Positions 1,006-17,895 of a DNA stretch of 28,217 nucleotides are shown here, piece after piece. Every line of letters begins with the position of its first letter. Position 1 is the stretch's first letter. Source of the DNA: a virus. Taxonomy: Duplodnaviria > Heunggongvirae > Uroviricota > Caudoviricetes. Where the stretch lies: IMG/VR virus record IMGVR_UViG_2802429224_000009; one strand, written 5' to 3'. The notes under the pieces are model-generated. The model was not told the DNA's origin. It did not search any database and was given only the letters and a program-made list of their open reading frames with translations. The position numbers and the translations under genes were made by a program.

Positions 1006-1101
1006 TGCGAAGCCCTCCAATGAACCGCTCTACAATTTCTCCAGCCTCTTTCCAGCAATAATCAGACCAGACAAAGAGCAGGTCTAACCAGTTTTCTGGC
1101 C

Positions 1102-1537: not shown

Positions 1538-1825
1538 ATGAGCGAATCAGAGCTTGAGGGGTTCATTCAGGTAGCACCATATCCACTTGAAGCGGTGCCA
1601 TATCAACTATTTGCCAAGATGATTGGTCGCAAAGAATCAACCGTCAGAACCATGATTGACGCTGCAAAGTTACCAACGATTGACTTTGTGAAACCAGGTT
1701 CAGTGAAGACGCGAGCATCAGAAAACTGGGTATATCTGCCAGCATTTAACGCAGGTATGCGCAAAGCGTTTTTTGATCAGCCGAAAGAACGCCGCGATGC
1801 ATGGTTGTTGTGGCTGGGGCTTTAA
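1538..1825 (+). CDS. cox: Cox-like excisionase / early transcriptional regulator
   Basis: 95 aa, strong RBS. Translation ...PYQLFAKMIGRKESTVRTMIDAAKLPTIDFVKPG...NWVYLPAFNAG...PKERRDAWLLWLGL closely parallels P2 Cox as recalled (...PYQEFAKLIGKSTGAVRRMIDKGKLPVID...YWVYLPAWNNG...PKEIRDGWLMWLGL). Confidence 0.85.
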   Translation: MSESELEGFIQVAPYPLEAVPYQLFAKMIGRKESTVRTMIDAAKLPTIDFVKPGSVKTRASENWVYLPAFNAGMRKAFFDQPKERRDAWLLWLGL

Positions 1826-1831
1826 TCATAA

Positions 1832-2038
1832 ATGACCAGCAATATCACCAGCGCCATTTTGGACCTTGTATTCCTAGAAGTGGGTGTAATAGCGATTTAT
1901 CTGCTTAGCAAGCTAACAGGACAAAAAGAACGCTTTATTGTTCTCAACGTTCATTACCTCGCCGCTTATGCCAGAGGTCTTTTTCCGATCACCATTGGTG
2001 CGCTGCTCATGGCGTTTGTTATTTGGCTCATCGGGTAG
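1832..2038 (+). CDS. Small hypothetical membrane protein (two predicted TM helices)
   Basis: 68-aa ORF immediately after cox; two hydrophobic stretches (ILDLVFLEVGVIAIYLL, LFPITIGALLMAFVIWLIG). Weak RBS. Confidence 0.35.
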   Translation: MTSNITSAILDLVFLEVGVIAIYLLSKLTGQKERFIVLNVHYLAAYARGLFPITIGALLMAFVIWLIG

Positions 2039-2049
2039 AGGCACGAAAA

Positions 2050-2508
2050 ATGAATAAGCAACAGCGAAATGGCAAGCCCCATAACACGGGATTTCGTCGC
2101 AATTACTTTGAAAATGGGTGTTATGCCGGGGAAGTAAATCGGCACGGAGTTTTTGACATGAAGCAACAGCGCAATTCTTCACAGCAACGCTTCCGCAACG
2201 GGGCGGAACGCCACGCTAACCGTTTCGCTACCAGTGCATCGCGTAGCAACTCTCGCTACAGCCTGAGCGAAACACACGCAACACCGGATGGCCACGCTGT
2301 AAAACAAATCGGCGAGCATGCCTGGCTGATTGAGAAAGCTGGAATCGTGGTCCACAAATGCCCACGCAATCCGTTTACCGGAAACCGCATTTTTGCATTG
2401 AGCTGCGGCGACAATCACTTCGGGCAGGATTTCACATTATACGAAGCGCTTCGCACGGTTGATCGTCTGCTTCGCGGGCAAAGTTTTATTAAACAGGCTG
2501 ATTTATAA
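2050..2508 (+). CDS. Hypothetical early protein (152 aa)
   Basis: Track ORF 2023..2508; internal ATG at 2050 (MNKQQRNGKP...) with GTAGAGG 8 nt upstream. N-terminal half rich in N/Q/R, C-terminal half more globular. No family recognised. Confidence 0.45.
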   Translation: MNKQQRNGKPHNTGFRRNYFENGCYAGEVNRHGVFDMKQQRNSSQQRFRNGAERHANRFATSASRSNSRYSLSETHATPDGHAVKQIGEHAWLIEKAGIVVHKCPRNPFTGNRIFALSCGDNHFGQDFTLYEALRTVDRLLRGQSFIKQADL

Positions 2509-2531
2509 CAGGTGCTTTATGACCAAAGAGC

Positions 2532-2798
2532 ATGCACAAGGTGTATTTATCCGTTTTATTGATTTTCGCGGTGAACTGTTATTACGCGCATCAGCCATTG
2601 ACGGAGTTGTTCCATCCGAAAAAAAACGCAGCTACTTACGTTTATCTGAACGGTACGCGCCTGACTGTGGAGCTTCCGTACCAGACCGTACGAGAAATCA
2701 TTAGCGAAGCTGAAAAGGCACGTCAGGTTAATGGCGATGAACCCTATATCGAAATTATTTGTATGGATTCAGAAGCTGAAATTCAGAAAGCAGATTAA
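2532..2798 (+). CDS. Hypothetical protein (frame uncertain)
   Basis: 88-aa ORF ending 12 nt before the RBS/ATG of the next gene (operon-like packing). An overlapping alternative frame (ATG 2519..2704, 61 aa) cannot be excluded; start unverified. Confidence 0.3.
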   Translation: MHKVYLSVLLIFAVNCYYAHQPLTELFHPKKNAATYVYLNGTRLTVELPYQTVREIISEAEKARQVNGDEPYIEIICMDSEAEIQKAD

Positions 2799-2809
2799 AG
2801 GGCATTGCG

Positions 2810-3052
2810 ATGGGCAAAGAATATAAAACTCTCATTAATAAAGCACTTGAACGATTTTATTTTCGCTTAAGTGCATCAGGCGCTCATGCTGAACGTGCAG
2901 CCCGTGACTCATTGACCAGGGCAATCCGGAGTTTGTATGACGTCGCTTTTTACGCTGATGATCTGGATGCACTTAACGAACTTTCCGAGCTGATCTGTGC
3001 CGCAGAATGCGGGGAACATATTGAACCGTATAAGCTGGGGAATATCGCATGA
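2810..3052 (+). CDS. Hypothetical protein (80 aa)
   Basis: ATG at 2810; stop TGA overlaps the ATG of the next small ORF (ATGA at 3049-3052), suggesting translational coupling. Confidence 0.45.
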   Translation: MGKEYKTLINKALERFYFRLSASGAHAERAARDSLTRAIRSLYDVAFYADDLDALNELSELICAAECGEHIEPYKLGNIA

Positions 3053-3162
3053 GTATATTTATCTCATGGCTTGTTCTGATTATTTCGGTGGCCTGCGCCA
3101 TTGGGATTATGCGAATTATTCATTCAGTAAAAAAGATTGAACGCTTTTTCACTGACGAATAA
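3049..3162 (+). CDS. Small single-pass membrane peptide (37 aa)
   Basis: Not in the ORF track (below length cut-off). My translation: MSIFISWLVLIISVACAIGIMRIIHSVKKIERFFTDE; hydrophobic core then basic tail; start overlaps the upstream stop. Confidence 0.35.
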   Translation: MSIFISWLVLIISVACAIGIMRIIHSVKKIERFFTDE

Positions 3163-3254
3163 CAGCTTAAACAAAACACCAGATTAAATAAGAAAACGTG
3201 AAAACAATCCGCACTCGCGGAGGTATTCGCACACACAAATAACGAGGATACAAA

Positions 3255-3668
3255 ATGAACGCTAAAGATACAGTCACCATCACCAAACTGAAAAAAATAT
3301 CAGAAATGGAAGATGCATTAGCCAGGCAGGCACTGAGAGAAGGACTTATTCCCTTTTATGTTCGTTCAATGGCTATAGCAGAAGTCACCGCAAGTGCTGC
3401 TGGACTTATTGAAAGCCTGAACAACGAAATCAGCACTCTCAAAGCTCAATTAGCCGGCACCAACACTTCTTCCCCCAGCATTGGGAAACGGGTCTTTATC
3501 ATCAACAACCCACAACAGGAATACATCATCCTGGCAGACCTGCAGGGGAGCTACATGATTGCTGCGGTTCCGGCAAATGAGAGCGAACCGCTGAGTGATG
3601 TACACATCATCAGACGCGACCGGATTGCGTTCATCGACACAGCAACCTCTTCCCCATTTAACGCATAA
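3255..3668 (+). CDS. Hypothetical protein (137 aa)
   Basis: ATG at 3255 with AGGA-containing RBS (aacgaggatacaaaATG); follows a ~90-bp non-coding gap, so possibly the first gene of a sub-operon. N-terminal region looks helical/coiled-coil. Confidence 0.5.
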   Translation: MNAKDTVTITKLKKISEMEDALARQALREGLIPFYVRSMAIAEVTASAAGLIESLNNEISTLKAQLAGTNTSSPSIGKRVFIINNPQQEYIILADLQGSYMIAAVPANESEPLSDVHIIRRDRIAFIDTATSSPFNA

Positions 3669-3696
3669 CCCCATGAAAAACCAAAGGAGCACAGCG

Positions 3697-3897
3697 ATGA
3701 TCAAATCATTATTAACCGCACATTTCACATCGCGCGGCGTTGAATACGACGTGGAAGACAGCCTGATCGATCACGACAGAACAGCTCCTTCCCGCAGCGA
3801 GCCGGGTGTTCATCACATCTGGCTTAAGAACGGGGAGCATTACGTGGCTACTAACGTGATGTATGTGCAGGTCCTGCGCAAAAAAGCAGGTAACTGA
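3697..3897 (+). CDS. Hypothetical protein (66 aa)
   Basis: Track ORF 3595..3897; the ATG at 3697 (MIKSLLTAHF...) has AAAGGAG 6 nt upstream and lies after the upstream stop. Confidence 0.4.
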   Translation: MIKSLLTAHFTSRGVEYDVEDSLIDHDRTAPSRSEPGVHHIWLKNGEHYVATNVMYVQVLRKKAGN

Positions 3898-3922
3898 TGA
3901 CTCAGGTACAGGAGCCACGCAG

Positions 3923-4168
3923 ATGACCATTCTGGACTACATCGCCGCCAATCCGGGTTGTAGCGGTGGAGAAATCGCCGCAGCACTGAATACCTCAACC
4001 ACAGCCATTAATGCGGAGTTACGCCGACTCTGGCGCAGCGGTTCAGTCATAAGAAAAGAGCGCAAAACAGGCGGTCGCTTTTCTTACCAGATAAACCCGA
4101 TGCCGTTCGGGTGCGGCAATCCACTTACCAACATGTTTAACCAGCTACTGAAGGAAGCCAGAGCATGA
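3923..4168 (+). CDS. Winged-helix DNA-binding protein (MarR/PadR-like fold, 81 aa)
   Basis: ATG at 3923 with AGGAG RBS; MTILDYIAANPGCSGGEIAAALNTSTTAINAELRRLWRSGSVIRKERKTGGRFSYQI is a typical wHTH layout (recognition helix, then basic wing). Stop overlaps next ATG (ATGA at 4165-4168). Confidence 0.55.
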   Translation: MTILDYIAANPGCSGGEIAAALNTSTTAINAELRRLWRSGSVIRKERKTGGRFSYQINPMPFGCGNPLTNMFNQLLKEARA

Positions 4169-4461
4169 GCGCCATCAACCACCAGGAACTACGCGAACTG
4201 GCAACTGACTTGCAACGAATGGCAACGCATCAAAAATTACTGGCGTTTCGCGCAATGCTCTCGCCGTCTGCTGTGCTGGCCCTACTGGATGAACTGGAGC
4301 ACGCCGGAACCACAGCTCCCGCCATTCGCCTGACGCTCCGCCATGAGATCGAGGATTTTTGCGCAACGCTGGAGTCATTGGGCGAACCCCAGACACCGGA
4401 AGACATGCAGCGCGAGTTACTGCAGCGCATCAACAAGGTTTTTGATTTCTTTCTCAACTAA
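4165..4461 (+). CDS. Hypothetical helical protein (98 aa), translationally coupled to the wHTH gene
   Basis: ATG at 4165 overlapping the upstream stop; acidic, predicted helical; no family recognised. Confidence 0.5.
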   Translation: MSAINHQELRELATDLQRMATHQKLLAFRAMLSPSAVLALLDELEHAGTTAPAIRLTLRHEIEDFCATLESLGEPQTPEDMQRELLQRINKVFDFFLN

Positions 4462-4475
4462 GCGGGAACCACAAC

Positions 4476-4688
4476 ATGAACAAGAAGACATGGCTTCGCG
4501 CCTATGCATGGGCGCTGGTATGCGTCCTCGTTTCTCTCATTCTGTATGTGGGGCTACTCCCCAGAATGATTTCATCAGACAGCTCCTTCCTGGTATTGCT
4601 GGGCATTTTTGTCGCCTTGCTGTACCCGGCGGGCGTTGTCCGCTTTTTCAGTAACTACATCAAAGCAATTATGGAAACCAAACAATGA
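4476..4688 (+). CDS. Small inner-membrane protein (70 aa, two TM helices), partner of the SPFH lipoprotein
   Basis: Hydrophobic segments YAWALVCVLVSLILYVGLL and FLVLLGIFVALLYPAGVV; stop TGA overlaps the ATG of the SPFH gene (ATGA at 4685-4688). Confidence 0.5.
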   Translation: MNKKTWLRAYAWALVCVLVSLILYVGLLPRMISSDSSFLVLLGIFVALLYPAGVVRFFSNYIKAIMETKQ

Positions 4689-5509
4689 AAAAACTATTAC
4701 CACTCATCCCTCTCCTGATGACCACACTTCTGGTTGGCTGTGACCGCGTGGAGCCGGGCAATGTAGGCATCAAAGTCAACAAGCTGGGCGACGACAAAGG
4801 CGTCGGCGAAGTAGTTGGCGTTGGCCGCTACTGGACAGGCTGGAATACAGAGGTTTACATCTTCCCGACCTTCAAACAAATGAAGACTTACGATGAGCCG
4901 TTCAGCTTCCAGATGAGTGACGGCACAACCATCGGCTATCACATCGGCGTGGCTTACAAGGTTGATCCATCCAAAGTTACCACAGTGTTTCAGACCTACC
5001 GCAAAGGCGTGGATGACATTACTGACACTGACCTGCGCCAGAAGATCGCCGATGCACTCAACCGACTGGCCAGCAAAATGACCACCGATAAGTTTATCGA
5101 CGGTGGCAAGTCTGAACTGCTGGATTCAGCACTTAAAGACATTCAGTCAGAAATGACACCTATCGGCATTCAGGTAATGAGCCTCTCTTATGTCGGTAAA
5201 CCGGAATATCCGCCAACCGTTATCGACAGCATTAACGCCAAAGTCACGGCAAACCAGAAAACCCTGCAACGCGAGCAGGAAGTCAAGCAACGCGAAGCAG
5301 AAGCCAACATGCTGCGCGCAGAAGCTGCCGGACAGGCCGATGCCATTCGCACAAAAGCCCAGGCTGAAGCCGACGCCATTCGTTTACGCGGTGAAGCTCT
5401 GCGCCAGAATCCCGGCGTTATGGAGCTGGAAGCGATTAACAAATGGAACGGCACGCTACCGCAATACATGACCAGTAATACCGCTGTTCCGTTTGTTCCG
5501 GTGAAGTAA
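4685..5509 (+). CDS. SPFH/band-7 (prohibitin/stomatin-like) domain lipoprotein
   Basis: 274 aa. N-terminal lipoprotein signal peptide with lipobox LLVGC (MKKLLPLIPLLMTTLLVGC); central SPFH-like core; C-terminal Ala/Glu/Arg-rich coiled coil (REAEANMLRAEAAGQADAIRTKAQAEADAIRLRGEA) typical of the family. Confidence 0.8.
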   Translation: MKKLLPLIPLLMTTLLVGCDRVEPGNVGIKVNKLGDDKGVGEVVGVGRYWTGWNTEVYIFPTFKQMKTYDEPFSFQMSDGTTIGYHIGVAYKVDPSKVTTVFQTYRKGVDDITDTDLRQKIADALNRLASKMTTDKFIDGGKSELLDSALKDIQSEMTPIGIQVMSLSYVGKPEYPPTVIDSINAKVTANQKTLQREQEVKQREAEANMLRAEAAGQADAIRTKAQAEADAIRLRGEALRQNPGVMELEAINKWNGTLPQYMTSNTAVPFVPVK

Positions 5510-5515
5510 TTCAAC

Positions 5516-5539
5516 CCGGCCAGTGAAACCGCTGGCCGG
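5516..5539 (+). terminator. Stem-loop after the SPFH gene (terminator-like, no U-tract)
   Basis: Perfect 8-bp inverted repeat CCGGCCAG (5516-5523) / CTGGCCGG (5532-5539) with an 8-nt loop, 7 nt after the stop; followed by A-rich rather than T-rich sequence. Confidence 0.3.
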
Positions 5540-5576
5540 AAATATAACGAATAAACAAAAAGCCAGAGGACAGAAC

Positions 5577-5723
5577 ATGCACAAAGCCTTTGAACGATGG
5601 ATGCGCCAGCGTTACGGCAATCGCTATGACCTGACAAGGGATGTTGATGGCTACTACTGCCGCGAAATTGTGAAACGAATGTTTGAAGTGTGGTGCCACG
5701 CTCGCGGCCTGTACGCCGTGTAA
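5577..5723 (+). CDS. Small hypothetical protein (48 aa)
   Basis: ATG at 5577 (MHKAFERWMRQRYGNRYDLT...) with GAGGA about 8 nt upstream; short, so coding status uncertain. Confidence 0.3.
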   Translation: MHKAFERWMRQRYGNRYDLTRDVDGYYCREIVKRMFEVWCHARGLYAV

Positions 5724-5862
5724 TCCGTGTCACTGCCAGAAGGTTAACCCATGTATACACAAAAAAACCGCTTGCCATGCCGTAATCAGTCAGGTTACAT
5801 TTCCGCTGCACCTCATAAAACGGGTGCCGGGATTGCAACCCCCGCTGACAACTACAGCGCAC

Positions 5863-5883
5863 AACCGCGCCAGCGGTTTTTTT
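5863..5883 (+). terminator. Candidate Rho-independent terminator
   Basis: AACCGC (5863-5868) / GCGGTT (5873-5878) stem with GCCA loop, followed by a T-run through 5883. Confidence 0.4.
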
Positions 5884-5923
5884 GTGCGTACCGTATCGCC
5901 ACGTCTTTTTCGCACACGAATTA

Positions 5924-6001
5924 TGGTGGGGCGTATGGGGCCGACTTCGGTCGGGCCGGTTTCTGTAGTTGCCGGTGGTTGCAACCCCATACGCCTCGCC
6001 A
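5924..6001. repeat. Long-range inverted repeat (about 17 bp arms) enclosing a UUCG-tetraloop hairpin; candidate structured RNA or DNA cruciform
   Basis: 5924-5940 pairs with 5985-6001 (core 11 bp GGCGTATGGGG / CCCCATACGCC perfect, extended with G-U pairs); interior holds CCGAC-TTCG-GTCGG (5941-5954). Confidence 0.45.
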
Positions 6002-6061
6002 CCCAGAATTGCAACCTCTGGATGGTGAGTTTTCAAAACTTGCAACTACAGAGGCCACATC

Positions 6062-6292
6062 ATGGCAAACCGCAAACAACAGCGCGCATACGCTGCGCGT
6101 CGTCACATCCAGACTGAAATCAACCGCAGACTTTCCCGCGCATCACGCGTCGCGCAAATCATGCACATCAATATGCTGCATGAGCACAGCCACGCACTAT
6201 CAAACATTTATTCCGCCTCTGTTTTCAGCTATCTGGCGGATGATCTGCACGAGCTTCAACAGCTCATCCAGCAGCAAAACAAACTCCATTAA
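6062..6292 (+). CDS. Hypothetical basic protein (76 aa)
   Basis: ATG at 6062 with AGAGG RBS; arginine-rich N-terminus (MANRKQQRAYAARRHIQTEINRRLSR). Confidence 0.45.
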   Translation: MANRKQQRAYAARRHIQTEINRRLSRASRVAQIMHINMLHEHSHALSNIYSASVFSYLADDLHELQQLIQQQNKLH

Positions 6293-6364
6293 TTCCTGTT
6301 CCGGGCCTTTCCTGCACCTTGCGGCGGGAGGCCTTCGCACATCTGTAGTAAAGAGAATTGCAGC

Positions 6365-6754
6365 ATGATTGACCGTCACGACTTCGTAAAATGGGTGCGC
6401 ACACAGGACACCCGTCTGGCCCCAAAACTTCAGGCAATGTTTGATTTTTATCTCCGTGCCCGCGCCAGCCGGGCACGCACCACAAAACCGGAGAACGCAG
6501 ACACCCTTTATTTCACCGTGGACGACTGTTACCGCGTAGCCTTCACGCCACAAGGTCTGGCCCTGTACACCCTGACACCACACGGCGACTCCCTGCTGGC
6601 GTATTACAACTCCCCGGCCTCCGTATTTGCGGCAATGCTGGCGCATCGTACCGCTGGCGGGTGTGCCTCGCTGAGTGAATACACCACTGAATTTAACCGC
6701 CTTTCCGTCATCTTCTCGCAGGAGTGGCAGCGCGTGACGGGATACCAGCCATGA
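6365..6754 (+). CDS. Hypothetical protein (129 aa) translationally coupled to gene A
   Basis: Stop TGA at 6752-6754 overlaps the ATG of the replication gene at 6751. Confidence 0.5.
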   Translation: MIDRHDFVKWVRTQDTRLAPKLQAMFDFYLRARASRARTTKPENADTLYFTVDDCYRVAFTPQGLALYTLTPHGDSLLAYYNSPASVFAAMLAHRTAGGCASLSEYTTEFNRLSVIFSQEWQRVTGYQP

Positions 6755-9591
6755 GTGAGTTTGCATGGAGCTGGAATGAACCGCAGCCAGCTATTGATCC
6801 GGACGACTTCGCGAACTTCAGCCGGTTGCCAAAAACCGGACTGCAACGCGCCATTCGTTACTACTATGAGGCGGACAAAAAGGCTCAGGAAGAACAGGAT
6901 GCGAAGGAAGAAGCCTTTTTCGCACAATCCGCCATGGGTAAAAAACTCATGGCATCCCTTGAGGAAGCCGGGCAACGCGAAAAACTGATAAAAAACATCA
7001 TCAGTAAGCGCCAGGAAATAAAGCAAGACCCGGTGGCCTGCGCCTTTGCCGAACTGAAGGCACTTCCCGTTTATCTGCGAGACCCCCTGAGCCGCCGCCT
7101 CTCTTTTTTACGTAAGAAGCAGGAATCTGACCGCCAGAAAGGAAAAAACGCCAGGCTGGCAGAACGCTATGCACAAGGAACCCTGCTCAAAATATTCAAA
7201 CGTCTGAAACGCACTGACGGACGCTGGCTGACACCGTGTTATTGCTCCCTTGCCGGACGCGAACGCCTGGACGATTTGCTTTACCTGCCGCAGCTCAACA
7301 AACACCAGATACAGACGCTGGCCACCATGACGGCGGCGATGTTCAGCAGCACTTTTGAAACACTCTGCGATAACTTTGGCGCGACTGATGGCGAGCTGAC
7401 CATGAAAATTGCGCTGAAGGCGTATCAGATGCTGGCCCGCATGGCGTTACATCTGCACACCATGCCGCCGCATTACGAAGCACTGAGAACGGACAAAGAC
7501 CGGAAGAACGCACCGAATACGGAGCTGCTGCCGGGTGCCATCCTTCGCCTGACCTGTGCGGAATGGTGGAAACACAAACTGTGGCTTTTACGTTGCGAGT
7601 GGCGGGAAGAACAACTCCGTGCCGCCTGTCTGGTTTCCAGAAAAACATCACCCTATCTGAGCCAGGACGCGTTAAGCGAGTTTCGCGCACAGCGCGAGAA
7701 AACACGCGATTTTCTGAAAAGTTTCATGCTGGAAAATGAAGACGGGTTCACGATTGATCTCGAGACAGTGTATTACGCGGGAGTAAGTAACCCGGTTCAC
7801 CGTAAGGCAGAAATGATGGCCACCATGAAGGGGCTGGAACTTCTGGCCGAAGCCCGTGGTGACAAAGCGGTGTTTCTGACTGTCACCTGCCCGTCAAAAT
7901 ACCACGCAACAACGGAGAACGGTCATCCGAACCCCAAATGGAACGGGGCCACCATGCGCGACTCCAGCGATTACCTGGTTAACACGTTTTTTGCGGCGGT
8001 CCGCAAAAAACTGAACCGCGACGGCCTGCGCTGGTATGGCATCCGCACGGTGGAGCCTCACCATGACGGCACCGTGCACTGGCATATGATGGTCTTTGCT
8101 CATCCGGAAGAAATCGACAGCATCGTGGCCATCACCCGCGATATTGCCATTCAGGAAGATCGTCACGAACTGGGCGATGATATTACTCCGCGCTTTAAGG
8201 CGGAGTATGTCGACGGCTCAAAAGGCACACCAACCAGCTATATCGCGACCTACATCGGAAAAAACCTGGACAGCCGCGCCGTAGATGGCATCGACCCGAA
8301 AACGGGCAAGCCACGCGTTGACCACGAAACCGGAAAATCAATGGCCGAGAGCGTGGAGCGCGCCATTGGCTGGGCGCGTCTTCACCGGGTCCGCCAGTTC
8401 CAGTTCTTTGGCATCCCCTCCCGTCAGGTATGGCGTGAACTCCGCCGCCTTGCCAGCCAGATGGCACGCAACCCGGAAGGCCCGCAACGGCTGAAGGATG
8501 ATGCAATGGATGCGGTACTCGCTGCCGCTGATGCCGGGTGTTTTGCCTCCTACATTGAAAAACAGGGCGGCGTACTTGTTCCACGTAAAGACTACCTGAT
8601 TCGCACCGCCTACGACCTCGCAGATGAGCTGAACGATTACGGCGAACAGAGCGTACAGATTTACGGGATCTGGTCACCACTCATCGGGGAATCCTCCCGT
8701 GTGTGCACGCATCCGGATAACTGGAAGCTGGTAAGACGCAAACCGGAAGCGGAAGACAGCGCCCGCGAAAATGGTTTTGACCTTCAGGGCGGCCCTGCCG
8801 CCCCTTGGACTCGTGGCAATAACTGTCCCCGTGTACAGGAAACGAACAACAACGGGACAGAACAGCCGGAAGAACGGCCAGCACTGTGGCCGCAGCTCCC
8901 TGACGGCGTTGAAGTGAATGAATGGATGCGCTCACTGAAACGGCACGAACGCCGGGCGCTGATGCGTTCGCTGCGTGACAAACAGGCCAAAAACAGCAGT
9001 GCTGAAATGCAGAACTGGACACAGAGCCGCAAACAGCCACAGCCTTTGCCTGATAACCACGAGTTACTCGCTAAAGAATGGCGGGAGTCTGCTGAATCTC
9101 TCGGCCTGCATATCGGTGAACAGCAGATGCAGCACCTGTTACGGGGCGGCAGTCTGTACGTTGACGGCAGCATCATTGCACCGCAGGGATTTGAAATTGT
9201 ACGCAAACCGGATACCCGCCCGGACAGCCGAATCACGCAGCTCTGGCAACGCCTGAGCCGTAACCACGGCGTAAGCAGCACGGAGATCCGCCATAACCCG
9301 GTCGCCAGCTATCTGGAACAACTAGGGGCATCAGACCCTGAAGCCGCCGCACACCTGGCATCCACACTTCAGCAGGACCAGAACACCATGAAAACCCCCG
9401 TTACCGTGCTTTCTGACATGCTGCGCGCCATCCGTGACGCAGAGCATGCACAAAGAATCAGTGAAACCACTGAACGCGCCCGCCGCAAAGCAGACCTGCT
9501 GCGGGGTGGCCTGACCAGCGGAAACAAAAAACAGACAGAAACGGGATTCACAAATCCCGTAAATGAGCAAAAAACGCGCCGCGATATATGA
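6751..9591 (+). CDS. A: Rolling-circle replication initiation endonuclease, P2 gpA family
   Basis: Track ORF 6724..9591; probable start is the ATG at 6751 (MSEFAWSWNEPQ...). Carries the HUH-type motif (HDGTVHWHMMVF) and paired catalytic tyrosines (TSYIATYIGKN) characteristic of gpA-family initiators. At 946 aa it is longer than P2 gpA as I recall it. Confidence 0.9.
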   Translation: MSEFAWSWNEPQPAIDPDDFANFSRLPKTGLQRAIRYYYEADKKAQEEQDAKEEAFFAQSAMGKKLMASLEEAGQREKLIKNIISKRQEIKQDPVACAFAELKALPVYLRDPLSRRLSFLRKKQESDRQKGKNARLAERYAQGTLLKIFKRLKRTDGRWLTPCYCSLAGRERLDDLLYLPQLNKHQIQTLATMTAAMFSSTFETLCDNFGATDGELTMKIALKAYQMLARMALHLHTMPPHYEALRTDKDRKNAPNTELLPGAILRLTCAEWWKHKLWLLRCEWREEQLRAACLVSRKTSPYLSQDALSEFRAQREKTRDFLKSFMLENEDGFTIDLETVYYAGVSNPVHRKAEMMATMKGLELLAEARGDKAVFLTVTCPSKYHATTENGHPNPKWNGATMRDSSDYLVNTFFAAVRKKLNRDGLRWYGIRTVEPHHDGTVHWHMMVFAHPEEIDSIVAITRDIAIQEDRHELGDDITPRFKAEYVDGSKGTPTSYIATYIGKNLDSRAVDGIDPKTGKPRVDHETGKSMAESVERAIGWARLHRVRQFQFFGIPSRQVWRELRRLASQMARNPEGPQRLKDDAMDAVLAAADAGCFASYIEKQGGVLVPRKDYLIRTAYDLADELNDYGEQSVQIYGIWSPLIGESSRVCTHPDNWKLVRRKPEAEDSARENGFDLQGGPAAPWTRGNNCPRVQETNNNGTEQPEERPALWPQLPDGVEVNEWMRSLKRHERRALMRSLRDKQAKNSSAEMQNWTQSRKQPQPLPDNHELLAKEWRESAESLGLHIGEQQMQHLLRGGSLYVDGSIIAPQGFEIVRKPDTRPDSRITQLWQRLSRNHGVSSTEIRHNPVASYLEQLGASDPEAAAHLASTLQQDQNTMKTPVTVLSDMLRAIRDAEHAQRISETTERARRKADLLRGGLTSGNKKQTETGFTNPVNEQKTRRDI

Positions 9592-9667: not shown

Positions 9668-10627
9668 ATGAAAATTTGTATCGACGACGGCTCCACCAAC
9701 ATCAAGCTGGCATGGACTGAGAACGGCGAACGCCGCAACGCCATCAGCCCGAACAGCTTCAAGTCGGAATGGTCTGCGCCGTTCGGTGGCACGCAGCCCG
9801 CGAACTACATGCTTGATGGCGTGCGCTATGGTTTTGATCCGGTCAGCGATCGCTTTGTCCAGACGACCGACACGCAATACCAGTACAGCGATGTGAATGT
9901 CATTGCCATTCATCATGCGCTGGTCAAATCAGGCATCACGCCACAGGAGGTGGATGTGGTTGTCACCCTGCCACTGAGCGAGTATTTCGACACAAACGCA
10001 CAGCCGGACATGACCAACATCAACCGCAAAAAAGCGAACGTTATGCGCCCGGTGGAGTACCAGAACGGCGAGGCATTCACTATCCGTAACGTGCGGGTTA
10101 TGCCTGAATCCATTCCGGCTGGCTTTAAAGCACTGGCTGACATGAGTCCGTTTGAATCCCTGCTGATTGTGGATTTGGGCGGAACCACGCTGGATGTGGC
10201 AAAGGTTCAGGGGCAACTGGCAGGTATCAGCCAGGTGTTTTGCGATCCACACGTAGGCGTTTCCCTGATGGCCGATGCCGTACTGTCGGTGATGGCCACC
10301 AACGGTATGCGCACCAGTCACCACATCGCCAATACCATTATCGAACATCGCCACGATGAAGCCTGGCTGCGCCAGCACATCCACAATGACGCGCATTACG
10401 CCAGCCTGATGGCGGTTATTCGTGAAAAGGAAGAAACACTGAAACAACGCGTGATCCGCGCGCTGGCGGGTTTTTCGGGTTACGGGCGGGTGATGGTTGT
10501 CGGTGGAGGGGCGGAGATTGTGGCACCCGCTATCCGCGAAGCCTGCGGAGTTAATGCGACTTTCATCGCGGACGGGGTGCCACAGTTTGCTCTGGTTAAT
10601 GGGCTGTACGCAATGGACAAGGAGTAA
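9668..10627 (+). CDS. parM: Actin-like segregation ATPase, ParM/StbA family (type II partition)
   Basis: 319 aa, AAGGAA RBS. N-terminus MKICIDDGSTNIKLAW closely matches R1 ParM as recalled (MLVFIDDGSTNIKLQW); phosphate-2 motif IVDLGGTTLDV; C-terminal VMVVGGGAEI...LVNGLYA also ParM-like. Confidence 0.9.
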   Translation: MKICIDDGSTNIKLAWTENGERRNAISPNSFKSEWSAPFGGTQPANYMLDGVRYGFDPVSDRFVQTTDTQYQYSDVNVIAIHHALVKSGITPQEVDVVVTLPLSEYFDTNAQPDMTNINRKKANVMRPVEYQNGEAFTIRNVRVMPESIPAGFKALADMSPFESLLIVDLGGTTLDVAKVQGQLAGISQVFCDPHVGVSLMADAVLSVMATNGMRTSHHIANTIIEHRHDEAWLRQHIHNDAHYASLMAVIREKEETLKQRVIRALAGFSGYGRVMVVGGGAEIVAPAIREACGVNATFIADGVPQFALVNGLYAMDKE

Positions 10628-10631
10628 ATCA

Positions 10632-10946
10632 ATGACGACACCAACCAGACGGATAAGTTTCTATCTGAAGCCCGCCGTCGTCAAGAGCGAACGGGAGGCG
10701 TGCAGTTACCTCGACAGCCTGCCAGCCTCCGAACGCAGCCGCGCACAACGCGCGGCTTTTCTGGCCGGACTGGCTCTTATAAAACGCACCCCCGCGTTGG
10801 CGTATTCGCTGGCAGAATGGTCAGAAGACGAAATACGGATGCCATCGCTGCCAGTACAGCCTGAAAAACCGGCACAACCAGCAACAAAGAACGACAGCGC
10901 CACACAACTGATGAAGGACAATATCCGCGCACTCTTTCCCGAATAA
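10632..10946 (+). CDS. parR: ParR/StbB-like centromere-binding adaptor (ribbon-helix-helix)
   Basis: ATG at 10632, 4 nt after the parM stop. RRISFYLKPAVVKSEREACSYLDSLPASERSRAQRAAFLAGLAL parallels R1 ParR (RTIAFKLNPDVNQTDKIVCDTLDSIPQGERSRLNRAALTAGLAL) from memory. The track ORF 10497..10946 is an artefactual upstream extension overlapping parM. Confidence 0.8.
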   Translation: MTTPTRRISFYLKPAVVKSEREACSYLDSLPASERSRAQRAAFLAGLALIKRTPALAYSLAEWSEDEIRMPSLPVQPEKPAQPATKNDSATQLMKDNIRALFPE

Positions 10947-11033
10947 CCCCATCGGGGCAATATCGCCCGCTTGCAGGAGAGTCCGGACGAAGCCAGAATA
11001 ACGGCAAACAGTAACTCAGAAGAGGATAACATC

Positions 11034-11537
11034 GTGAGTCACTTTAACGATTTATGTCAGATCAACAAGGATGCAGAAGAGAAGCATACCGAAGCAGCGA
11101 AAATTCTGCGGGAGAGCGCAGCAGAGTTGATTGATTTTTATGAAGAATGGCTGGGGCTTCCATCCCTGTACTGGGAAGATAATGACGGCAACTCGCATCG
11201 CTATGTAGACACAGGCCAGCCATGCAAAACAGCGGAAGACTTCCGCCCGTTCCCACTCCACAGAATGCCATCTTCTCGGGACAATGTTTTTCGTATGGCT
11301 GTGCGAACGTGGGTTGGTTCATCTGACAACAGTTACCCGGTAAGCGTGGTTATTGCGCTTGAACTGCATTCGGTAGATACAGAAAGGGTATCCCTGAAAG
11401 TTCAGGTAGAAGACGATGGCCCTGTTCGCGTATTGCTTAATAAACCCAGCGCAGAAGCCTGGGGAGAGGTGGTCAAGAGCATGAAAAAACACATTGCCAG
11501 TCACCTGAAAAGCCGCGCTCCATCCGCGCTCCGTTAA
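11034..11537 (+). CDS. Hypothetical acidic protein (about 167 aa from GTG 11034; track ORF begins at TTG 10971)
   Basis: GTG at 11034 has AGAGGA about 7 nt upstream; ORF ends at 11537 directly before a strong hairpin. No family recognised. Confidence 0.5.
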   Translation: MSHFNDLCQINKDAEEKHTEAAKILRESAAELIDFYEEWLGLPSLYWEDNDGNSHRYVDTGQPCKTAEDFRPFPLHRMPSSRDNVFRMAVRTWVGSSDNSYPVSVVIALELHSVDTERVSLKVQVEDDGPVRVLLNKPSAEAWGEVVKSMKKHIASHLKSRAPSALR

Positions 11538-11553
11538 ACAGGGCTGGTGAGTC

Positions 11554-11576
11554 GGGGCATAAATCCTTTATGCCCC
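11554..11576. terminator. Perfect 10-bp stem / 3-nt loop hairpin (GGGGCATAAA-TCC-TTTATGCCCC), terminator-like, no U-tract
   Basis: Seen directly at 11554-11576, 17 nt after the stop of the preceding ORF, at the boundary between the early (+) and late (-) gene blocks. Confidence 0.4.
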
Positions 11577-11812
11577 GGCGAAGCAGCAGACAAGCGAAGC
11601 GCGTCAGTCACCGTAGTAGGGAAAATAACTTTATTGTTGAGCTTAAATTTATCAAGCGTTATCTTTCGCCTGTAAACTGCATTGTAAGGTTTTGGGGATT
11701 CAGAGGCGGCTCCCCCAAAAAAGTTGATACCGCCTAGTTGGTCACTTCGTCGTCAGACTGGGACTCCAGCCACGCCAGCTGAGAGGTTGGCACAAACCTC
11801 CAGCTATCCCCG

Positions 11813-12070
11813 TTACCCCGCCTGCAACAGTTCCAGTGCCATCTGTTTTTCTTCCGGGCGCATCCGTTCAATCAACAGCTTTAACACGCCATTCTCCAGC
11901 CCGCTGGGCACCAGTGTGTGCGAGTAGGTCAGGTTCATCACCCAGGTGTGCCCACACTCGAGACGGGTGCAACGGTAATAAACATCTGCAAAGCGATCAT
12001 CTTTCCAGAAGGTCTTCTCAATCACTGCGCGTTCACCACAGCAAAAACATCGCGCTTTTTGTCTGCGCAT
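11813..12070 (-). CDS. ogr: Ogr/Delta-family zinc-finger late-gene transcription activator
   Basis: Track ORF 11813..12139(-); internal ATG at 12070 (MRRQKARCFCCGER...) with GGAGGTGG RBS. Cys spacing C-X2-C-X22-C-X4-C (C8, C11, C34, C39 of the 85-aa product) equals the Ogr zinc-finger spacing. Confidence 0.8.
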   Translation of the reverse strand: MRRQKARCFCCGERAVIEKTFWKDDRFADVYYRCTRLECGHTWVMNLTYSHTLVPSGLENGVLKLLIERMRPEEKQMALELLQAG

Positions 12071-12135: not shown

Positions 12136-13170
12136 TCACTCCGGGGGCTCATCAAATTCAAGAATAAATTTCACCTCCCCCAGTCGCCTGATATCCGGGT
12201 CACTGTTGATTCCCTCCATAATCAGGCGGCGCATCGGAATAACCTCATCCCTGTAATATGCCTCGCGGGATTTCAGTGGGTCACCAAGCCCGGCCGTATT
12301 TGCGGGAATGATGCCGGCAAGTCCGGGTGGGAAACGGTGCGCAACGAGCTGATCCTGGGCACTGATGGTTTTTATATTCAGGAACTCATCTTTTGTACCT
12401 GAATCCCCGATAGGGATCACCTTAACGCCTTCTTTGTCTCCGCCCGGTATATTGATAAACATGGATTTAAAGTTGCCCGCCCCTTTTGACGCCTCTATCT
12501 TTTTACGGAATTCCGCCTCGAGCTCGGGATCCATGTCCGGGTCAGTGGAATACAGGATATAACCAAGATGTGCGCCGTTCTTGTAATACTTGCGGCGAAA
12601 GCGGGTGGCATCCACATTCAGCATGGCGGATTCCATCCCGTGAATATAATCCGGGACACCGTAAACCTGCTGTTGCGGGTCATAAATGGCCACGAACACC
12701 ACTTCGCCTGGCGGGTAAACGAGATCTTCCAGTGCCGCCTGCACAATCACCGTGCCACCCTCGTTGTTACGCCGCAGGTACAGAGAAGGTAACGTATGCA
12801 GGCGCACCACCCGACCGAAGCCATTGCGCACTTTAAGCAACCCCATATCCCCGAATATCAGCAGATTGGTTACTGCTGCCGCCATGGCGGCGTGTGTCAT
12901 ACCACCACCACCCCGAAAACCCTGCATGATCATATTGACGCGCGCACGCAATACCGCGCCGTGATACGGTGCGATATTGGACAACATGGCGAGATCCATG
13001 CGCTCAATGGGCGGCGTGTACCAGCCGTTATAGCCATCCCAGAGCGAGCCGTAATAACAGCCCCATGCAGCGACCGGTTCCGGGTCACCAAATTCAATAA
13101 ACGTCATTTTGCTGGCTGTTTTTTTTGCCACGCCATCGTGTAACACGGGGTATTTTTTCTTTTTACTCAT
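12136..13170 (-). CDS. Q: Portal vertex protein (P2 gpQ-like)
   Basis: 344 aa, same length class as P2 gpQ; immediately downstream of and overlapping the large terminase gene on the same strand. Confidence 0.85.
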   Translation of the reverse strand: MSKKKKYPVLHDGVAKKTASKMTFIEFGDPEPVAAWGCYYGSLWDGYNGWYTPPIERMDLAMLSNIAPYHGAVLRARVNMIMQGFRGGGGMTHAAMAAAVTNLLIFGDMGLLKVRNGFGRVVRLHTLPSLYLRRNNEGGTVIVQAALEDLVYPPGEVVFVAIYDPQQQVYGVPDYIHGMESAMLNVDATRFRRKYYKNGAHLGYILYSTDPDMDPELEAEFRKKIEASKGAGNFKSMFINIPGGDKEGVKVIPIGDSGTKDEFLNIKTISAQDQLVAHRFPPGLAGIIPANTAGLGDPLKSREAYYRDEVIPMRRLIMEGINSDPDIRRLGEVKFILEFDEPPE

Positions 13171-14950
13171 CTGACAGGATCCATGTTGATTTGCGCTTGT
13201 GCTTATAGTTCAGGGGTTCATTACTTGCGGCATGAGCTATGGCAAAGAAGATGTCAGCGTGCCCGGTTTCTTCGCTACGTTCGGCGGTGAAAGTGACTTT
13301 ATTGCCGCTGTTGGTGGATTCCTGACGAATGGCCAGGAACGATGCCGGAATATCCGTGGCTTCTTCATCCCACTCAATACGGTTGGCGTAAATCAGATCC
13401 AGCATCTTCATCACCAGGCGGTTTTTGGATTCCACGCTGTAATGAATGGCCACTGTTTCACGGCGGGCAAATCCCTGAACCAGCTCAAAGACACCGTAGC
13501 CAAGACCGGTGACGTCAATGCCGATAAATGTCATGTTATAGCGCGCCTTAATGCTGCGGATACGCTCTGCCATAAACTGGAATGACATGCTGCGCCAGTG
13601 GTGTTTTTCCAGCACGCGGAATCGTTCTGCCGCAACCAGCGGCGGTGCCAGCACAACAAATGTGGCGTTATCGCCGGAGCGCGCAGGGTCAAAGCCACCC
13701 CAAACCTCACGGTTACCAAATGGCATGGACTCTTCCGGGTGAAAATCCTCCCACGTACTGACATCAACACCACAACGCACAAGATCATCGAATTTAAAGA
13801 CGCTCTCTTTGTCATCCACAAACACACACATAAACAGCATATTGAACGCTGTTTCGTTGTATCGCTCGCGCAGTTCGTTGATGTCAGCAAGGTTAAAGCC
13901 GCCGGCAATGGCATCTTCCAGCGTAACCACATAGCGCCACTGACCATCCGGACATTCACGCCCACCATCGCGCAGCTCATCAAAGGACGGAAACTCAACC
14001 CCTTTTCGTTTCGGATCGCCTTTGCGCCATTCATCGCCAGACCAGAACGGGTAACCCTGGTGTGTTTTGGATGACGGCGTGGAGAAATAGGTAATGCGCC
14101 AGTGTTTATGGGTGGCCATCCCTGATGCCACTTCATTGAGACGGCGAAAACCGGGGATCCACAGGTATTCATCAATATACAGGTGGCCGCTGTTTGACTG
14201 CGCTGTGTTACTGTTGGTCGCCAGAAAATACAGTTCAGCCAGATTACTTAACTTAACCGGATTGCCTTTAATGGGAATGCCAAACTCTGTTTGTGCAATT
14301 TTTACAATATAAGTACGGAACACTTCGGCCTGACGTTTTGATGCCGATAAAAATATCTGTGTGTCGCCGGTTAATACTGCATCTTCAAATGCCTCAAACG
14401 CGAAGTAATACGTCGCCCCAATCTGGCGGGATTTAAGCAGGTTGCGTACACGGCGGAATTTGTTTTCACGCAGATGCAACTGATAAGCAAACAACTTTTT
14501 CGTAAACGGCTCAAAACTTTCAGCAGTCAGTCCGGAAACGTCATTAGTTTTGCGGGGACGCTCTTTCTTACCTGCACCTTTTTCTCCGCGTTCTTCTTTT
14601 CCATAACGGCCAGGCTGGGGGATGTCCACTCCCATTCGCGCAATCTCAGCCATTCGTTCCGTGTGCTTGTTTCTGACCGACATTAGTTTGACGTGATGAC
14701 CAATCAGGCGGTCGAGTTCATCGTGTTCTTCCGGCGTTTTATGGTCACGCTCCGCCAGTACAGCGAGACGCCGGGCGATAACATCCTCCACACCTTCCGT
14801 ATTGAGCTGCGTGTACCACTCAAACTTTGTCGCCCAGTAATAAACAATTCGCGGGCTGTTCAGTCCGAGTTTCTTTTGTATTTCTTTTGGTGTGTGCCTT
14901 TTCAGATAGAGCGATTTTGCAGCAGCAATCACCTCATCAGAATACGCCAT
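13163..14950 (-). CDS. P: Terminase large (ATPase) subunit (P2 gpP-like)
   Basis: 595 aa; ATG at 14950 with AGGTGAGG RBS; divergent from the scaffold/capsid operon as in P2. Confidence 0.85.
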   Translation of the reverse strand: MAYSDEVIAAAKSLYLKRHTPKEIQKKLGLNSPRIVYYWATKFEWYTQLNTEGVEDVIARRLAVLAERDHKTPEEHDELDRLIGHHVKLMSVRNKHTERMAEIARMGVDIPQPGRYGKEERGEKGAGKKERPRKTNDVSGLTAESFEPFTKKLFAYQLHLRENKFRRVRNLLKSRQIGATYYFAFEAFEDAVLTGDTQIFLSASKRQAEVFRTYIVKIAQTEFGIPIKGNPVKLSNLAELYFLATNSNTAQSNSGHLYIDEYLWIPGFRRLNEVASGMATHKHWRITYFSTPSSKTHQGYPFWSGDEWRKGDPKRKGVEFPSFDELRDGGRECPDGQWRYVVTLEDAIAGGFNLADINELRERYNETAFNMLFMCVFVDDKESVFKFDDLVRCGVDVSTWEDFHPEESMPFGNREVWGGFDPARSGDNATFVVLAPPLVAAERFRVLEKHHWRSMSFQFMAERIRSIKARYNMTFIGIDVTGLGYGVFELVQGFARRETVAIHYSVESKNRLVMKMLDLIYANRIEWDEEATDIPASFLAIRQESTNSGNKVTFTAERSEETGHADIFFAIAHAASNEPLNYKHKRKSTWILSDE

Positions 14951-15144
14951 AAATAAACCTCACCTGCTGATGCAATTTTAATTTATGCATTTTCAGCAAA
15001 GGCTTTTTTAAAAACGAATATCGCTTTTCGGTATTTTTCGGATATATGCGCATATCCGAAAGTACCGGAAATTAATCAGATGACGACGTTTTCATTTCTC
15101 CGTTAAATAACGCCAGTTTAATTTTTATCAGCGGATTAATTCAG
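14951..15144. promoter_or_regulatory. Divergent late-promoter region between P (-) and O (+)
   Basis: AT-rich 194-bp intergenic region. Inverted repeat gctgaTGCA...TGCAttttcagc (about 14964-14998); perfect 12-bp palindrome ATATGCGCATAT (15044-15055); direct TTTTCGG repeats (15025-15041). Confidence 0.5.
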
Positions 15145-17797: not shown

Positions 17798-17895
17798 ACG
17801 ACTCCCAACAACCGGGCGGGCGCGGTGGAGGTGTGCCGGCAAAAGCCATCAGCACACTGCGGAAACCGGTCAGCCCGCCTTTCCCCGGAGTGAGC

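Follow-up and report, generated by a model that had tools for sequence, protein, structure and literature searches.

A phiX174-like hairpin element, a putative primosome assembly signal, in the cargo slot of a mosaic P2-family prophage

What lies at the junction of the early and late regions of a P2-like prophage, where synteny with P2 would place the cohesive-end site (cos)? The question is raised by a Caudoviricetes sequence of 28,217 nt (IMG/VR record IMGVR_UViG_2802429224_000009; the window, hereafter), in which a parR-type partition gene and the leftward late operon are separated by an open reading frame (ORF; 11034-11537), a perfect 10-bp hairpin (11554-11576), and a gene-free interval of about 275 bp. 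An earlier analysis based on the letters alone (the sequence-only reading) had described these three features, all of which are present, and had expected the cos in the interval. We arrive at another answer. In this mosaic P2-family prophage, the region is probably not a cos but a variable cargo slot and the joint between two modules, and it contains an accessory gene (ORF167), a putative priming element, and the relic of a late leader. The second of these is a 65-nt segment (11543-11607) which, judging from its sequence and from the analogy with phiX174, is likely to be a strand-specific element of single-stranded DNA (ssDNA), of the structural class of the phiX174 complementary-strand origin and PriA site, i.e., a putative primosome assembly signal. 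The element is otherwise of a known kind; that the perfect hairpin should be part of a phiX174-type origin, in a cassette resembling a primosome assembly site (PAS), was unexpected.

The inverted repeat GGGGCATAAA-TCC-TTTATGCCCC is found exactly at the positions given by the sequence-only reading, but it is not the whole structure: it forms the apex of a 45-nt imperfect hairpin (11543-11587) made of a 4-bp outer stem, a bulge, a single base pair, a 2x2 GA-rich internal loop, a 13-bp stem, and a 3-nt loop. This hairpin is followed by AG and then by the 18-mer ACAAGCGAAGCGCGTCAG, which completes the 65-nt element and contributes to a mini-hairpin at 11589-11607 (GAC-AA-GCG-AAG-CGC-GTC). When folded as ssDNA, the segment 11538-11612 reaches -19.8 kcal/mol, against -9.9 +/- 1.9 for shuffled sequences (z = -5.4; 0 of 200 shuffles equal it). 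The 18-mer has a single copy in the window and none in P2.

Both parts of the element have counterparts in phiX174, whose F-G intergenic region is laid out as a 44-nt hairpin, a G, and then ACCAAGCGAAGCGCGGTAGG. First, 11543-11587 folds on one strand into a stable hairpin with a shape matching that of the phiX174 hairpin of about 44 nt, and both are imperfect hairpins of 44-45 nt with an A/T-rich apex and GA-rich internal loops. Second, in both cases a short hairpin with CAAGCGAAGCGCG starts 1-2 nt after the long one: the core of the 18-mer is identical at 13 of 13 positions to phiX174 nt ~2356-2368, and the outer stem covaries, with GAC/GTC here versus ACC/GGT in phiX174. Third, by analogy, both would be on the strand that is single-stranded in replication. 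The signature of n' sites is AAGCGG, and 'AAGCG(G)' is shared; Shlomai and Kornberg reportedly described in 1980 a 55-nt n' fragment with a 44-nt hairpin. In reviews, the phiX174 primosome assembly site is presented as a hairpin of fork-like shape on which PriA, PriB, DnaT, and DnaB-DnaC act. According to a saturation-mutagenesis preprint (10.64898/2026.07.25.740675), the phiX174 hairpin overlaps ori(-) and is the PriA-binding site, and the short hairpin at nt 2353-2373 is sensitive to mutations on both stems; the counterpart of the 18-mer core lies inside this short hairpin, adjoining the PriA-binding one. GCGNAGC mini-hairpins of DNA, of which GCGAAGC is one, are unusually stable and frequent at phage replication initiation sites (PMC13037366), and an Edwardsiella relative with GCGTAGC instead of GCGAAGC remains within this rule. 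The two systems differ in that phiX174 is an ssDNA virus, whereas the host replicon is here a double-stranded DNA (dsDNA) phage of the 30-kb class with gpA rolling-circle replication, and in that the element of the window lacks a T-run. Two other types of priming site were considered and rejected upon reading the sequence: a G4-type primase origin, because a CTG template triplet at a conserved place is lacking, and the DnaA-box hairpin of the ABC primosome, because the element has no DnaA box.

The long hairpin varies in sequence from lineage to lineage, and this variation is informative on its structure. Fifteen unrelated hairpin sequences fit one register of 18 pairs, with two to four standard pair types at every pair; in a control with shifted partners, 0-9 sequences fitted the register, versus 27. 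The base preceding the motif is always G. The copy in a Col156/MOBQ plasmid has a dot-bracket shape identical to that of the window and an unrelated sequence, the 44-nt hairpin of phiX174 has a close shape, and the three have in common the GA-rich internal loop (GTGA...GARG). Within the lineage of the window, the stem shows compensatory changes (loci L058 and L278).

The distribution of the element was assessed by searching for exact copies of the 18-mer or of its G-extended form. The exact 18-mer is present in more than 120 IMG/VR contigs, and the viral carriers are P88-like phages, members of the window's own lineage, in which the long hairpin is quite another one (AACCCGGAACGGGTGCGC...), and many unrelated microviruses of 4.1-4.9 kb, which have the element on the viral strand, in an intergenic position, after a hairpin, and often just before the phiX-like CTTGATATATTAGTG. 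When one genome per species is scanned, the exact 18-mer is found in 104 stretches from many phyla, against an estimated 17 or so by chance, and the neighbours of these matches include genes for MobA/MobL relaxases, ArdC, SprT-like proteins, ParA/ParB, primase-helicases, and integrases. The 60 nt 5' of the motif have a median folding energy of -12.2 kcal/mol, versus -6.2 kcal/mol in control windows (P = 1.5e-23), and the gap between hairpin and motif is of 2 nt in 39 of the 52 strong cases. In PLSDB, GACAAGCGAAGCGCGTCAG occurs in 1,543 plasmids, of which 1,002 are conjugative, 448 mobilizable, and 93 non-mobilizable (94% transmissible); they include an IncX3 NDM plasmid, Col plasmids of 5 kb, and Col156/MOBQ. 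The carriers of the element are all replicons with a single-stranded stage. The ssi (single-strand initiation) sequences of plasmids F, R6K, R100, ColE1, and ColE2 are n'-type PAS, according to PMC6854812 (citing Nomura et al. 1991) and a review (PMC5778457). Like the element, they are small, strand-specific, and located in non-coding DNA; the hairpin and 19-mer of the 1,543 plasmids may correspond to these classical mapped ssi sequences. None of the papers searched describes the motif in a phage or plasmid context. More tentatively, the hairpin and G-ACAAGCGAAGCGCGTCAG might be one modular 'complementary-strand origin' cassette used across microviruses, gpA-type dsDNA phages, conjugative and mobilizable plasmids, and integrative and conjugative elements of many phyla, on which gpB-less P2-family phages (the P88-like group and this lineage) would depend, via the host PriA primosome, for the start of lagging-strand synthesis.

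Some of these copies have contexts worth recording. Many microviruses (L063, L047, and some 20 further IMG/VR contigs of 4.1-4.9 kb) have CTTGATATATTAGTG 5-25 nt past the 18-mer, flanked by an inverted repeat; this sequence resembles that cleaved by phiX174 gpA, and the two origins may share one intergenic region. The plasmid copies (IncX3 pA575-NDM, L340 3440-3520; Col156, L341 1715-1795) are on the template strand of the adjoining transfer-region or mob genes, and that of IncX3 lies between genes for an ATP-binding protein and a thermonuclease. The 18-mer was rejected as a relaxase nic site or oriT, given its placement at the 3' ends of mob genes and not upstream of them. In high-GC metagenomic siphophages it is found within a small zinc-ribbon-like ORF that immediately precedes an HNH-TerL fusion gene (L028 396-600 and relatives such as L017, L022, and L033). 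We set these matches aside because they are inside a small ORF and are probably due to chance, amplified by relatedness, yet they are at the cos position of HNH-dependent cos phages.

How could such an element function in a P2-family phage? The alignment of the gpA protein locates an ori-like site within gene A that resembles the P2 ori GCCGCGCCTCGGAGTCCTGTCAATAACTGT, for which the P2 record gives a nick at 29892; the P2 ori 20-mer itself, with up to 3 mismatches allowed, has no match in the window. Gene A and the element share a strand, on which the latter lies 2.7 kb 3' of the ori-like site, and the P2 annotation and the analogy with phiX174 suggest which strand would be nicked. P2 gpA has reportedly been assayed on single-stranded oligonucleotide substrates. 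In the mechanism that we propose, gpA would nick the + strand at about 8807 and rolling-circle synthesis would displace this strand, which would then fold at 11543-11607, evade coating by SSB, which binds single-stranded DNA, and be recognised by the host PriA primosome. The latter would load DnaB and primase, and lagging-strand synthesis would begin. The element would thereby substitute for the P2 protein gpB, which is described as 'required for lagging strand synthesis' and would be missing in this lineage: neither tblastn nor PHROGs revealed a homologue among the early ORFs at 1538-6754, nearly all of which have no assigned function. The pattern of presence (the motif without gpB in the window, gpB without the motif in P2) is, on thin evidence, consistent with this model. 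Being stable and placed between convergent operons, the hairpin would probably also curb read-through, and the element could have served as a conserved joint for the exchange of cargo and late modules.

A number of points weigh against the interpretation of the element as a priming signal. The strand nicked by gpA is assigned from the + strand annotation of P2, the single-stranded substrates mentioned above, and the analogy with phiX174. The link between absence of gpB and presence of the motif concerns two lineages only, and a diverged analogue of gpB could hide among the unassigned early ORFs. In part, the invariance of the 18-mer is only apparent and stems from a search restricted to exact matches; some 17 random matches are expected in the genome scan, and the exact matches inside coding sequences are probably due to chance. 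In most contexts, the element lies between convergent genes, a site suited to a bidirectional terminator or to a stabiliser of mRNA 3' ends, and the large hairpin of phiX174 and of many microviruses doubles as a terminator. Finally, a very small cos might conceivably overlap the hairpin and the 18-mer, the true cos having escaped our searches.

The position of the element makes more sense once the composition of the window is considered. On the evidence of its alignments, the window is a mosaic, in which a P88-like early and partition region ending at 11607 is joined to an HP1-like late module. P88-type phages (Xuanwuvirus) match the segment 6017-11607 at ~95% identity, and this nucleotide match vanishes beyond 11607. 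The late genes are found at 93-98% identity in about 47 of 5,426 complete Escherichia coli genomes, and among characterised phages the portal protein matches only those of HP1 and vB_YenM_324 (53-54% amino acid identity). The slot between the two parts is bordered on the left by parR, the last gene of the P88-like early/partition block, for which relatives have an annotated gene of 312-315 nt at the equivalent place. At the left joint, homology to P88-type phages ends near 10785-10946 and homology to the ORF167 locus of E. coli SCU-115 starts at 10966; the cos-like region of ~380 nt that precedes the ORF in P88-type relatives is gone, leaving 87 nt between parR and the ORF. On the other side, the segment 11538-11607, which adjoins the stop codon of the portal gene in P88-like phages (the tQ position), ends at the joint 11607/11608, and the sequence following GAGAGGTTGGC differs among the window, ECL27977, and Chuche.

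The sequence-only reading had seen in the place of the ORF a known cargo position. Relatives with the same flanking genes have differing inserts between parR and the late operon: the 167-aa ORF, a 95-aa ORF with an Rrf2 regulator, a PAPS reductase, another small ORF, or a DUF3800 gene. These comparisons support the slot as a swap-in cargo site. The equation of this slot with that of P2 tin/orf91 is not borne out: in P88-type relatives the ORF sits between a candidate cos and the portal gene, i.e., at the left end of the packaged chromosome. The likeness to the P2 cargo genes near cos (tin, old, and orf91) is that of a variable accessory slot at the early/late junction; these genes differ from ORF167 in that they have no homology to it, and the ORF of the P88-type relatives is on the portal side of the candidate cos.

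The non-coding part of the slot has a history of its own. No supported ORF is present in 11577-11812, where the only ORF of at least 50 codons (11570-11737, + strand) spans three mosaic joints, and the interval has no tRNA, tmRNA, or att remnant that we could find, nor an Rfam family at gathering score. A match of the Rfam gyrA-motif over the hairpin was rejected as a chance hit, since it scores 24 bits for a gathering score of 45. Phage Chuche and P2-like prophages of E. coli have sequences with 93% identity to the segment 11686-11791. This segment is also 74% identical over 102 nt to a lambdoid prophage of SCU-485, and 81-83% identical over ~65 nt to HK446, Kapi1, and IME10; these lambdoid counterparts lie 66-130 nt downstream of the annotated PR' promoter, in the transcribed leader. 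The leader of PR' is the '6S RNA' region of lambda, and StxS is a short transcript from PR'. Like the lambdoid leader, the segment has the same orientation and keeps the GGCGG...CCGCC stem. Unlike it, the segment is in a P2-family context, with no PR'/qut, Q gene, or tR' terminator in evidence and no lambdoid homology upstream of 11686, and it is truncated at the place where the donor had acquired a DUF3800 moron. The leader is directly followed by a leftward DUF3800 gene in the lambdoid prophage of SCU-485 and in the P2-like Chuche, A17, and SMBL, and the lambdoid and P2-like arrangements remain colinear for 901 nt, with 68% identity. In the simplest reading, the DUF3800 gene and the leader piece are a moron that crossed phage families, from a lambdoid phage to the P2-like cargo slot, and the gene was later lost in the ancestor of the window. 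The segment would then be a non-functional, or at most marginally functional, relic. We note that the same combination of DUF3800 and leader piece is located in the gap between Q and lysis genes in the lambdoid prophage and in that between parR and portal in the P2-like ones (L014 4001-4912; L015 4001-4911; L003 3001-3911).

ORF167 itself is a genuine but rare accessory cargo protein. It starts with GTG, preceded by a ribosome-binding site (aagagga, 11020-11026), and has 167 codons and a stop at 11535-11537; the start is supported by the six homologues, each of which opens with an identical MSHFNDL, from an ATG. The protein, described as acidic by the sequence-only reading, is indeed so, if only mildly (isoelectric point of 5.8; 26 D+E versus 21 K+R). 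It matches phrog_5091 over its full length (1.7e-46; residues 1-166 versus 2-163 of the 164 of the profile) and has no match in Pfam, NCBIfam, or PADLOC (0 families at E <= 0.1 in the latter). Searches of billions of proteins retrieved homologues in 7 clusters at 90% identity and 28 at 50%, all stand-alone, of similar size, and devoid of Pfam domains. The predicted fold is a helix, a six-strand sheet, and a helix, and it has no match among annotated structures. In P2-like prophages of Edwardsiella, Salmonella, and E. coli, the homologue is always convergent with the portal gene and follows a non-coding region of 500-650 nt. We infer that ORF167 is a small factor that binds other proteins and is produced from the early/cargo transcript.

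If this is the content of the slot, what of the cos that P2 would lead one to expect there, as between its right-end cargo genes and gene Q? The position agrees with P2 and 186, whose cos are 160-190 nt from the portal gene, the interval has no genes, and vB_YenM_324 has a gap of 295 nt at the equivalent place. Yet this map position is the only thing that the interval shares with the P2 and 186 cos. A cos of the P2 19-mer type (GGCGAGGCGGGGAAAGCAC-related) is absent from the window at up to 3 mismatches and from the interval at up to 5, the alignment of the interval to the P2 and 186 cos regions (blastn-short) gives nothing above chance, and neither the flanking block of cos (TGCGCGC..GACGG) nor the P88-type blocks are found in the window, L010, or L011; the latter blocks are present in the P88_4B11, SCU-115, Chuche, Salmonella, and Edwardsiella loci. 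A cos would be inherited with the terminase genes, and the interval is not: among the 24 close relatives (portals at least 92% identical), 17 lack 11608-11812 while having the same terminase and portal, and 6 have an insert of 205-221 nt like that of the window. Since the 18-mer directly abuts the ogr stop codon in these 17, of which several variants occur in many genomes, 11608-11812 is dispensable. The sole sequence common to all relatives at this place is the hairpin with the 18-mer, and it is also carried by P88-type phages with a different terminase, by microviruses, and by plasmids, the last two without cos. Furthermore, HP1, which encodes the closest characterised relative of the portal (54% amino acid identity), has its cosL at record position 1-9, 250 nt from attP, beside int and 10.7 kb from the portal gene, so that synteny with P2 cannot be assumed for this packaging lineage. 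A cos in the interval is thus not supported, and we regard it as highly improbable; the cos is most likely elsewhere and, since the window ends inside the tail-fibre genes, it may be outside the window. A stronger rival to a priming role is that the hairpin and 18-mer are a bidirectional terminator, or a 3'-end stabiliser between convergent operons equivalent to P2 tQ, and a hotspot of exchange, with no part in DNA priming. In P88-type phages, the element has the position of P2 tQ and 186 tW, directly after the portal stop; its neighbouring genes converge in both phages and plasmids, a TTTTCTTATT run is present on the minus strand in the lineage's alternative hairpin, T-runs are found in microvirus versions, and every mosaic joint is exactly at the 3' end of the element. 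However, P2 tQ combines a canonical GC hairpin with a T-run and lacks any conserved 3' motif, whereas the hairpin of the window is set apart from the portal gene by the relic and ogr and has no T-run on either strand (the flanks are ggcgaagc on + and gactcacc on -), and no intrinsic terminator was called there by the scan. Termination also leaves unexplained an invariant, strand-specific 19-mer 3' of freely varying stems, the conservation of the GA-rich internal loop, and the restriction to replicons with an ssDNA stage, i.e., microviruses, gpA phages, and plasmids that are 94% conjugative or mobilizable; moreover, the counterpart in phiX174 is a documented PriA site. We consider it unlikely that the element is a punctuation mark of this kind and nothing more. 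The phiX174 hairpin doubles as the T_F terminator, and here, too, both roles may coexist.

The remaining alternatives concern the neighbours of the element. The segment 11637-11791 could be a working small-RNA gene, in which a sigma-70 promoter drives a PR'-leader-like transcript that is antisense to the 3' end of ogr and damps late activation in the lysogen, or that acts in trans like the short PR' transcripts of the StxS type. The spacer has the hexamers TTGAGC (11637-11642) and TATCTT (11660-11665), whose spacing of 17 nt is kept in three diverged copies, P2-like and lambdoid phages share a leader core with 81-93% conservation, and the leader always opposes the 3' end of a leftward gene. 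Nevertheless, the hexamers fit 8 of the 12 consensus positions and the pair is not called by the promoter scan; lambdoid PR' and qut have no homology to the sequence upstream of the core; the window has no terminator for it; its fold is no better than that of shuffled sequences (z = +0.9), which led us to reject it as a structured RNA; and most relatives are devoid of the leader. Its presence can be accounted for by co-transfer with the DUF3800 moron, with no function being needed. We find a working gene quite improbable and retain the relic. As for ORF167, it might be an anti-phage protein, acting in superinfection exclusion or defence by analogy with P2 tin or old: its slot holds other accessory genes in relatives, P2 has tin and old near cos, and its GC content is 0.50 versus 0.56 in the neighbouring early genes. 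We deem this rather unlikely.

The cos itself was sought in other places. The contig ends of the relatives in IMG/VR and in the assembly collection do not cluster near the portal gene, and the ends of the HP1 cos have no counterpart in the window. Among the candidates rejected, the P-O and M-L intergenic regions resemble an activator site and a structured attenuator, respectively, and the 9-mer CGGGGAAAG (core of the P2 cos), located near 17878 on the minus strand, is no more than chance would give in a window of 28 kb. The M-L region (17798-17895) is G+C-rich and has a long-range inverted repeat (GGGCGGGC...GCCCGCC) followed by TTT. In P88-type phages, a plausible candidate can be read from the sequence: the first position of the P88_4B11 record lies 350 nt to the left of the hairpin, in blocks that are conserved in Chuche and in E. 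coli, Salmonella, and Edwardsiella prophages. The candidate cos is GCACAATTTTTTTGAACGA(A)TTTT|TGCCCTT, with TGCTGCGCGCAGGTGACGGGGG some 70 nt further on, which resembles the TGCGCGCTGACGG adjoining the cut in P2, and it closely precedes the ORF167 homologue or a small ORF (end of L006 and L001 1-100; L002 5616-5992; L003 4025-4533; L139 5630-5730; L141 5529-5641; L145). In L145, which has a terminase of the window type, the segment between two GTGCACAAA repeats, with the putative cut site, is deleted.

These results may have implications beyond this prophage. If the model holds, a temperate dsDNA phage replicates with a minus-strand origin in the style of phiX174, and the role of the cassette would account for the module joints, in both cargo and late swaps, falling next to it. 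The 65-nt element, for whose recognition the sequence suffices, appears to flag single-strand priming sites in microviruses, P2-like prophages, IncX3 NDM plasmids, and small Col plasmids. Were this confirmed, it would provide a simple marker of the strand that is single-stranded in replication or transfer, a handle on the start of the lagging strand in P2-like phages without gpB, and a PriA-dependent step common to many resistance plasmids. For annotation, P2 synteny is no guide to the position of cos in mosaic Peduoviridae, the packaging module being here HP1-like and the portal-side interval dispensable. ORF167, modelled with confidence and without a known relative, is a further rare accessory protein and a candidate for cargo screening. 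The features of the window discussed here are given in Table 1.

Table 1. Features of the window around the cargo slot (positions of the 28,217-nt stretch)
Feature	Position	Strand	Remarks
Integrase	1-1020		
gpA, phiX-A-like rolling-circle initiator	6724-9591		
Probable gpA nick site (ori) inside gene A	8797-8826	+	25/30 identity to P2 ori
ParM	9668-10627		
parR-type partition gene	10632-10946	+	PF10784 Plasmid_stab_B (3e-24) and phrog_2515, from residue 46 of a long ORF
Left mosaic joint	10947-10965		
ORF167 cargo gene	11034-11537	+	GTG start, 167 aa
70-nt P88-like block	11538-11607	+	94% identity to P88-like phages
Imperfect hairpin, part 1 of the PAS-like element	11543-11587	+	DNA folding
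Perfect 10-bp stem with TCC loop, apex of the hairpin	11554-11576		
Invariant G and ACAAGCGAAGCGCGTCAG, mini-hairpin, part 2 of the PAS-like element	11589-11607	+	
Spacer common only to ECL27977-type and Chuche-type inserts	11608-11685	+	Alignments
Relic of lambdoid PR'-proximal late leader ('6S RNA' region)	11686-11791	+	
Right joint, relic to late module	11792-11812		
Ogr/Delta-type late activator, 85 aa, last gene of the leftward P-Q-ogr operon	11813-12070	-	PF04606 (3e-11), phrog_603
Portal	12136-13170		
Large terminase	13163-14950		

Several other traits of the window deserve mention. The leftward late operon is present to the right of the slot, as the sequence-only reading had it, but its first gene from 11813 is not that of the portal: it encodes an Ogr/Delta zinc-finger protein. 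This 85-aa product is annotated in E. coli relatives and occurs exactly in 322 blocks of the assembly collection. The activator thus ends the leftward terminase-portal operon, whereas its P2 counterpart is beside att; vB_YenM_324 shares the arrangement of the window, and HP1 apparently has an unannotated zinc-finger ORF there (L012 ~2000-2190; L013 5023-5343). Between gene A and the cargo slot of this integrated P2-family prophage lies a complete actin-type ParM/ParR module (9668-10946), common to all P88-like relatives, which raises the question of whether it serves a plasmid-like state or the partition of replicating phage DNA. The early region has, at 4476-5509, genes for an SPFH/Band-7 protein and a small membrane protein (phrog_1130), in what resembles a second cargo spot: the SPFH gene is also present in ETEC1717, and ECL27977 and SCU-115 have a DNA-binding protein at that spot. 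Lastly, a near-perfect palindrome, TTTCGGATATATGCGCATATCCGAAA, is located at 15036-15061, between the terminase and scaffold genes (P-O), where P2 has the Ogr site of its divergent late promoters.

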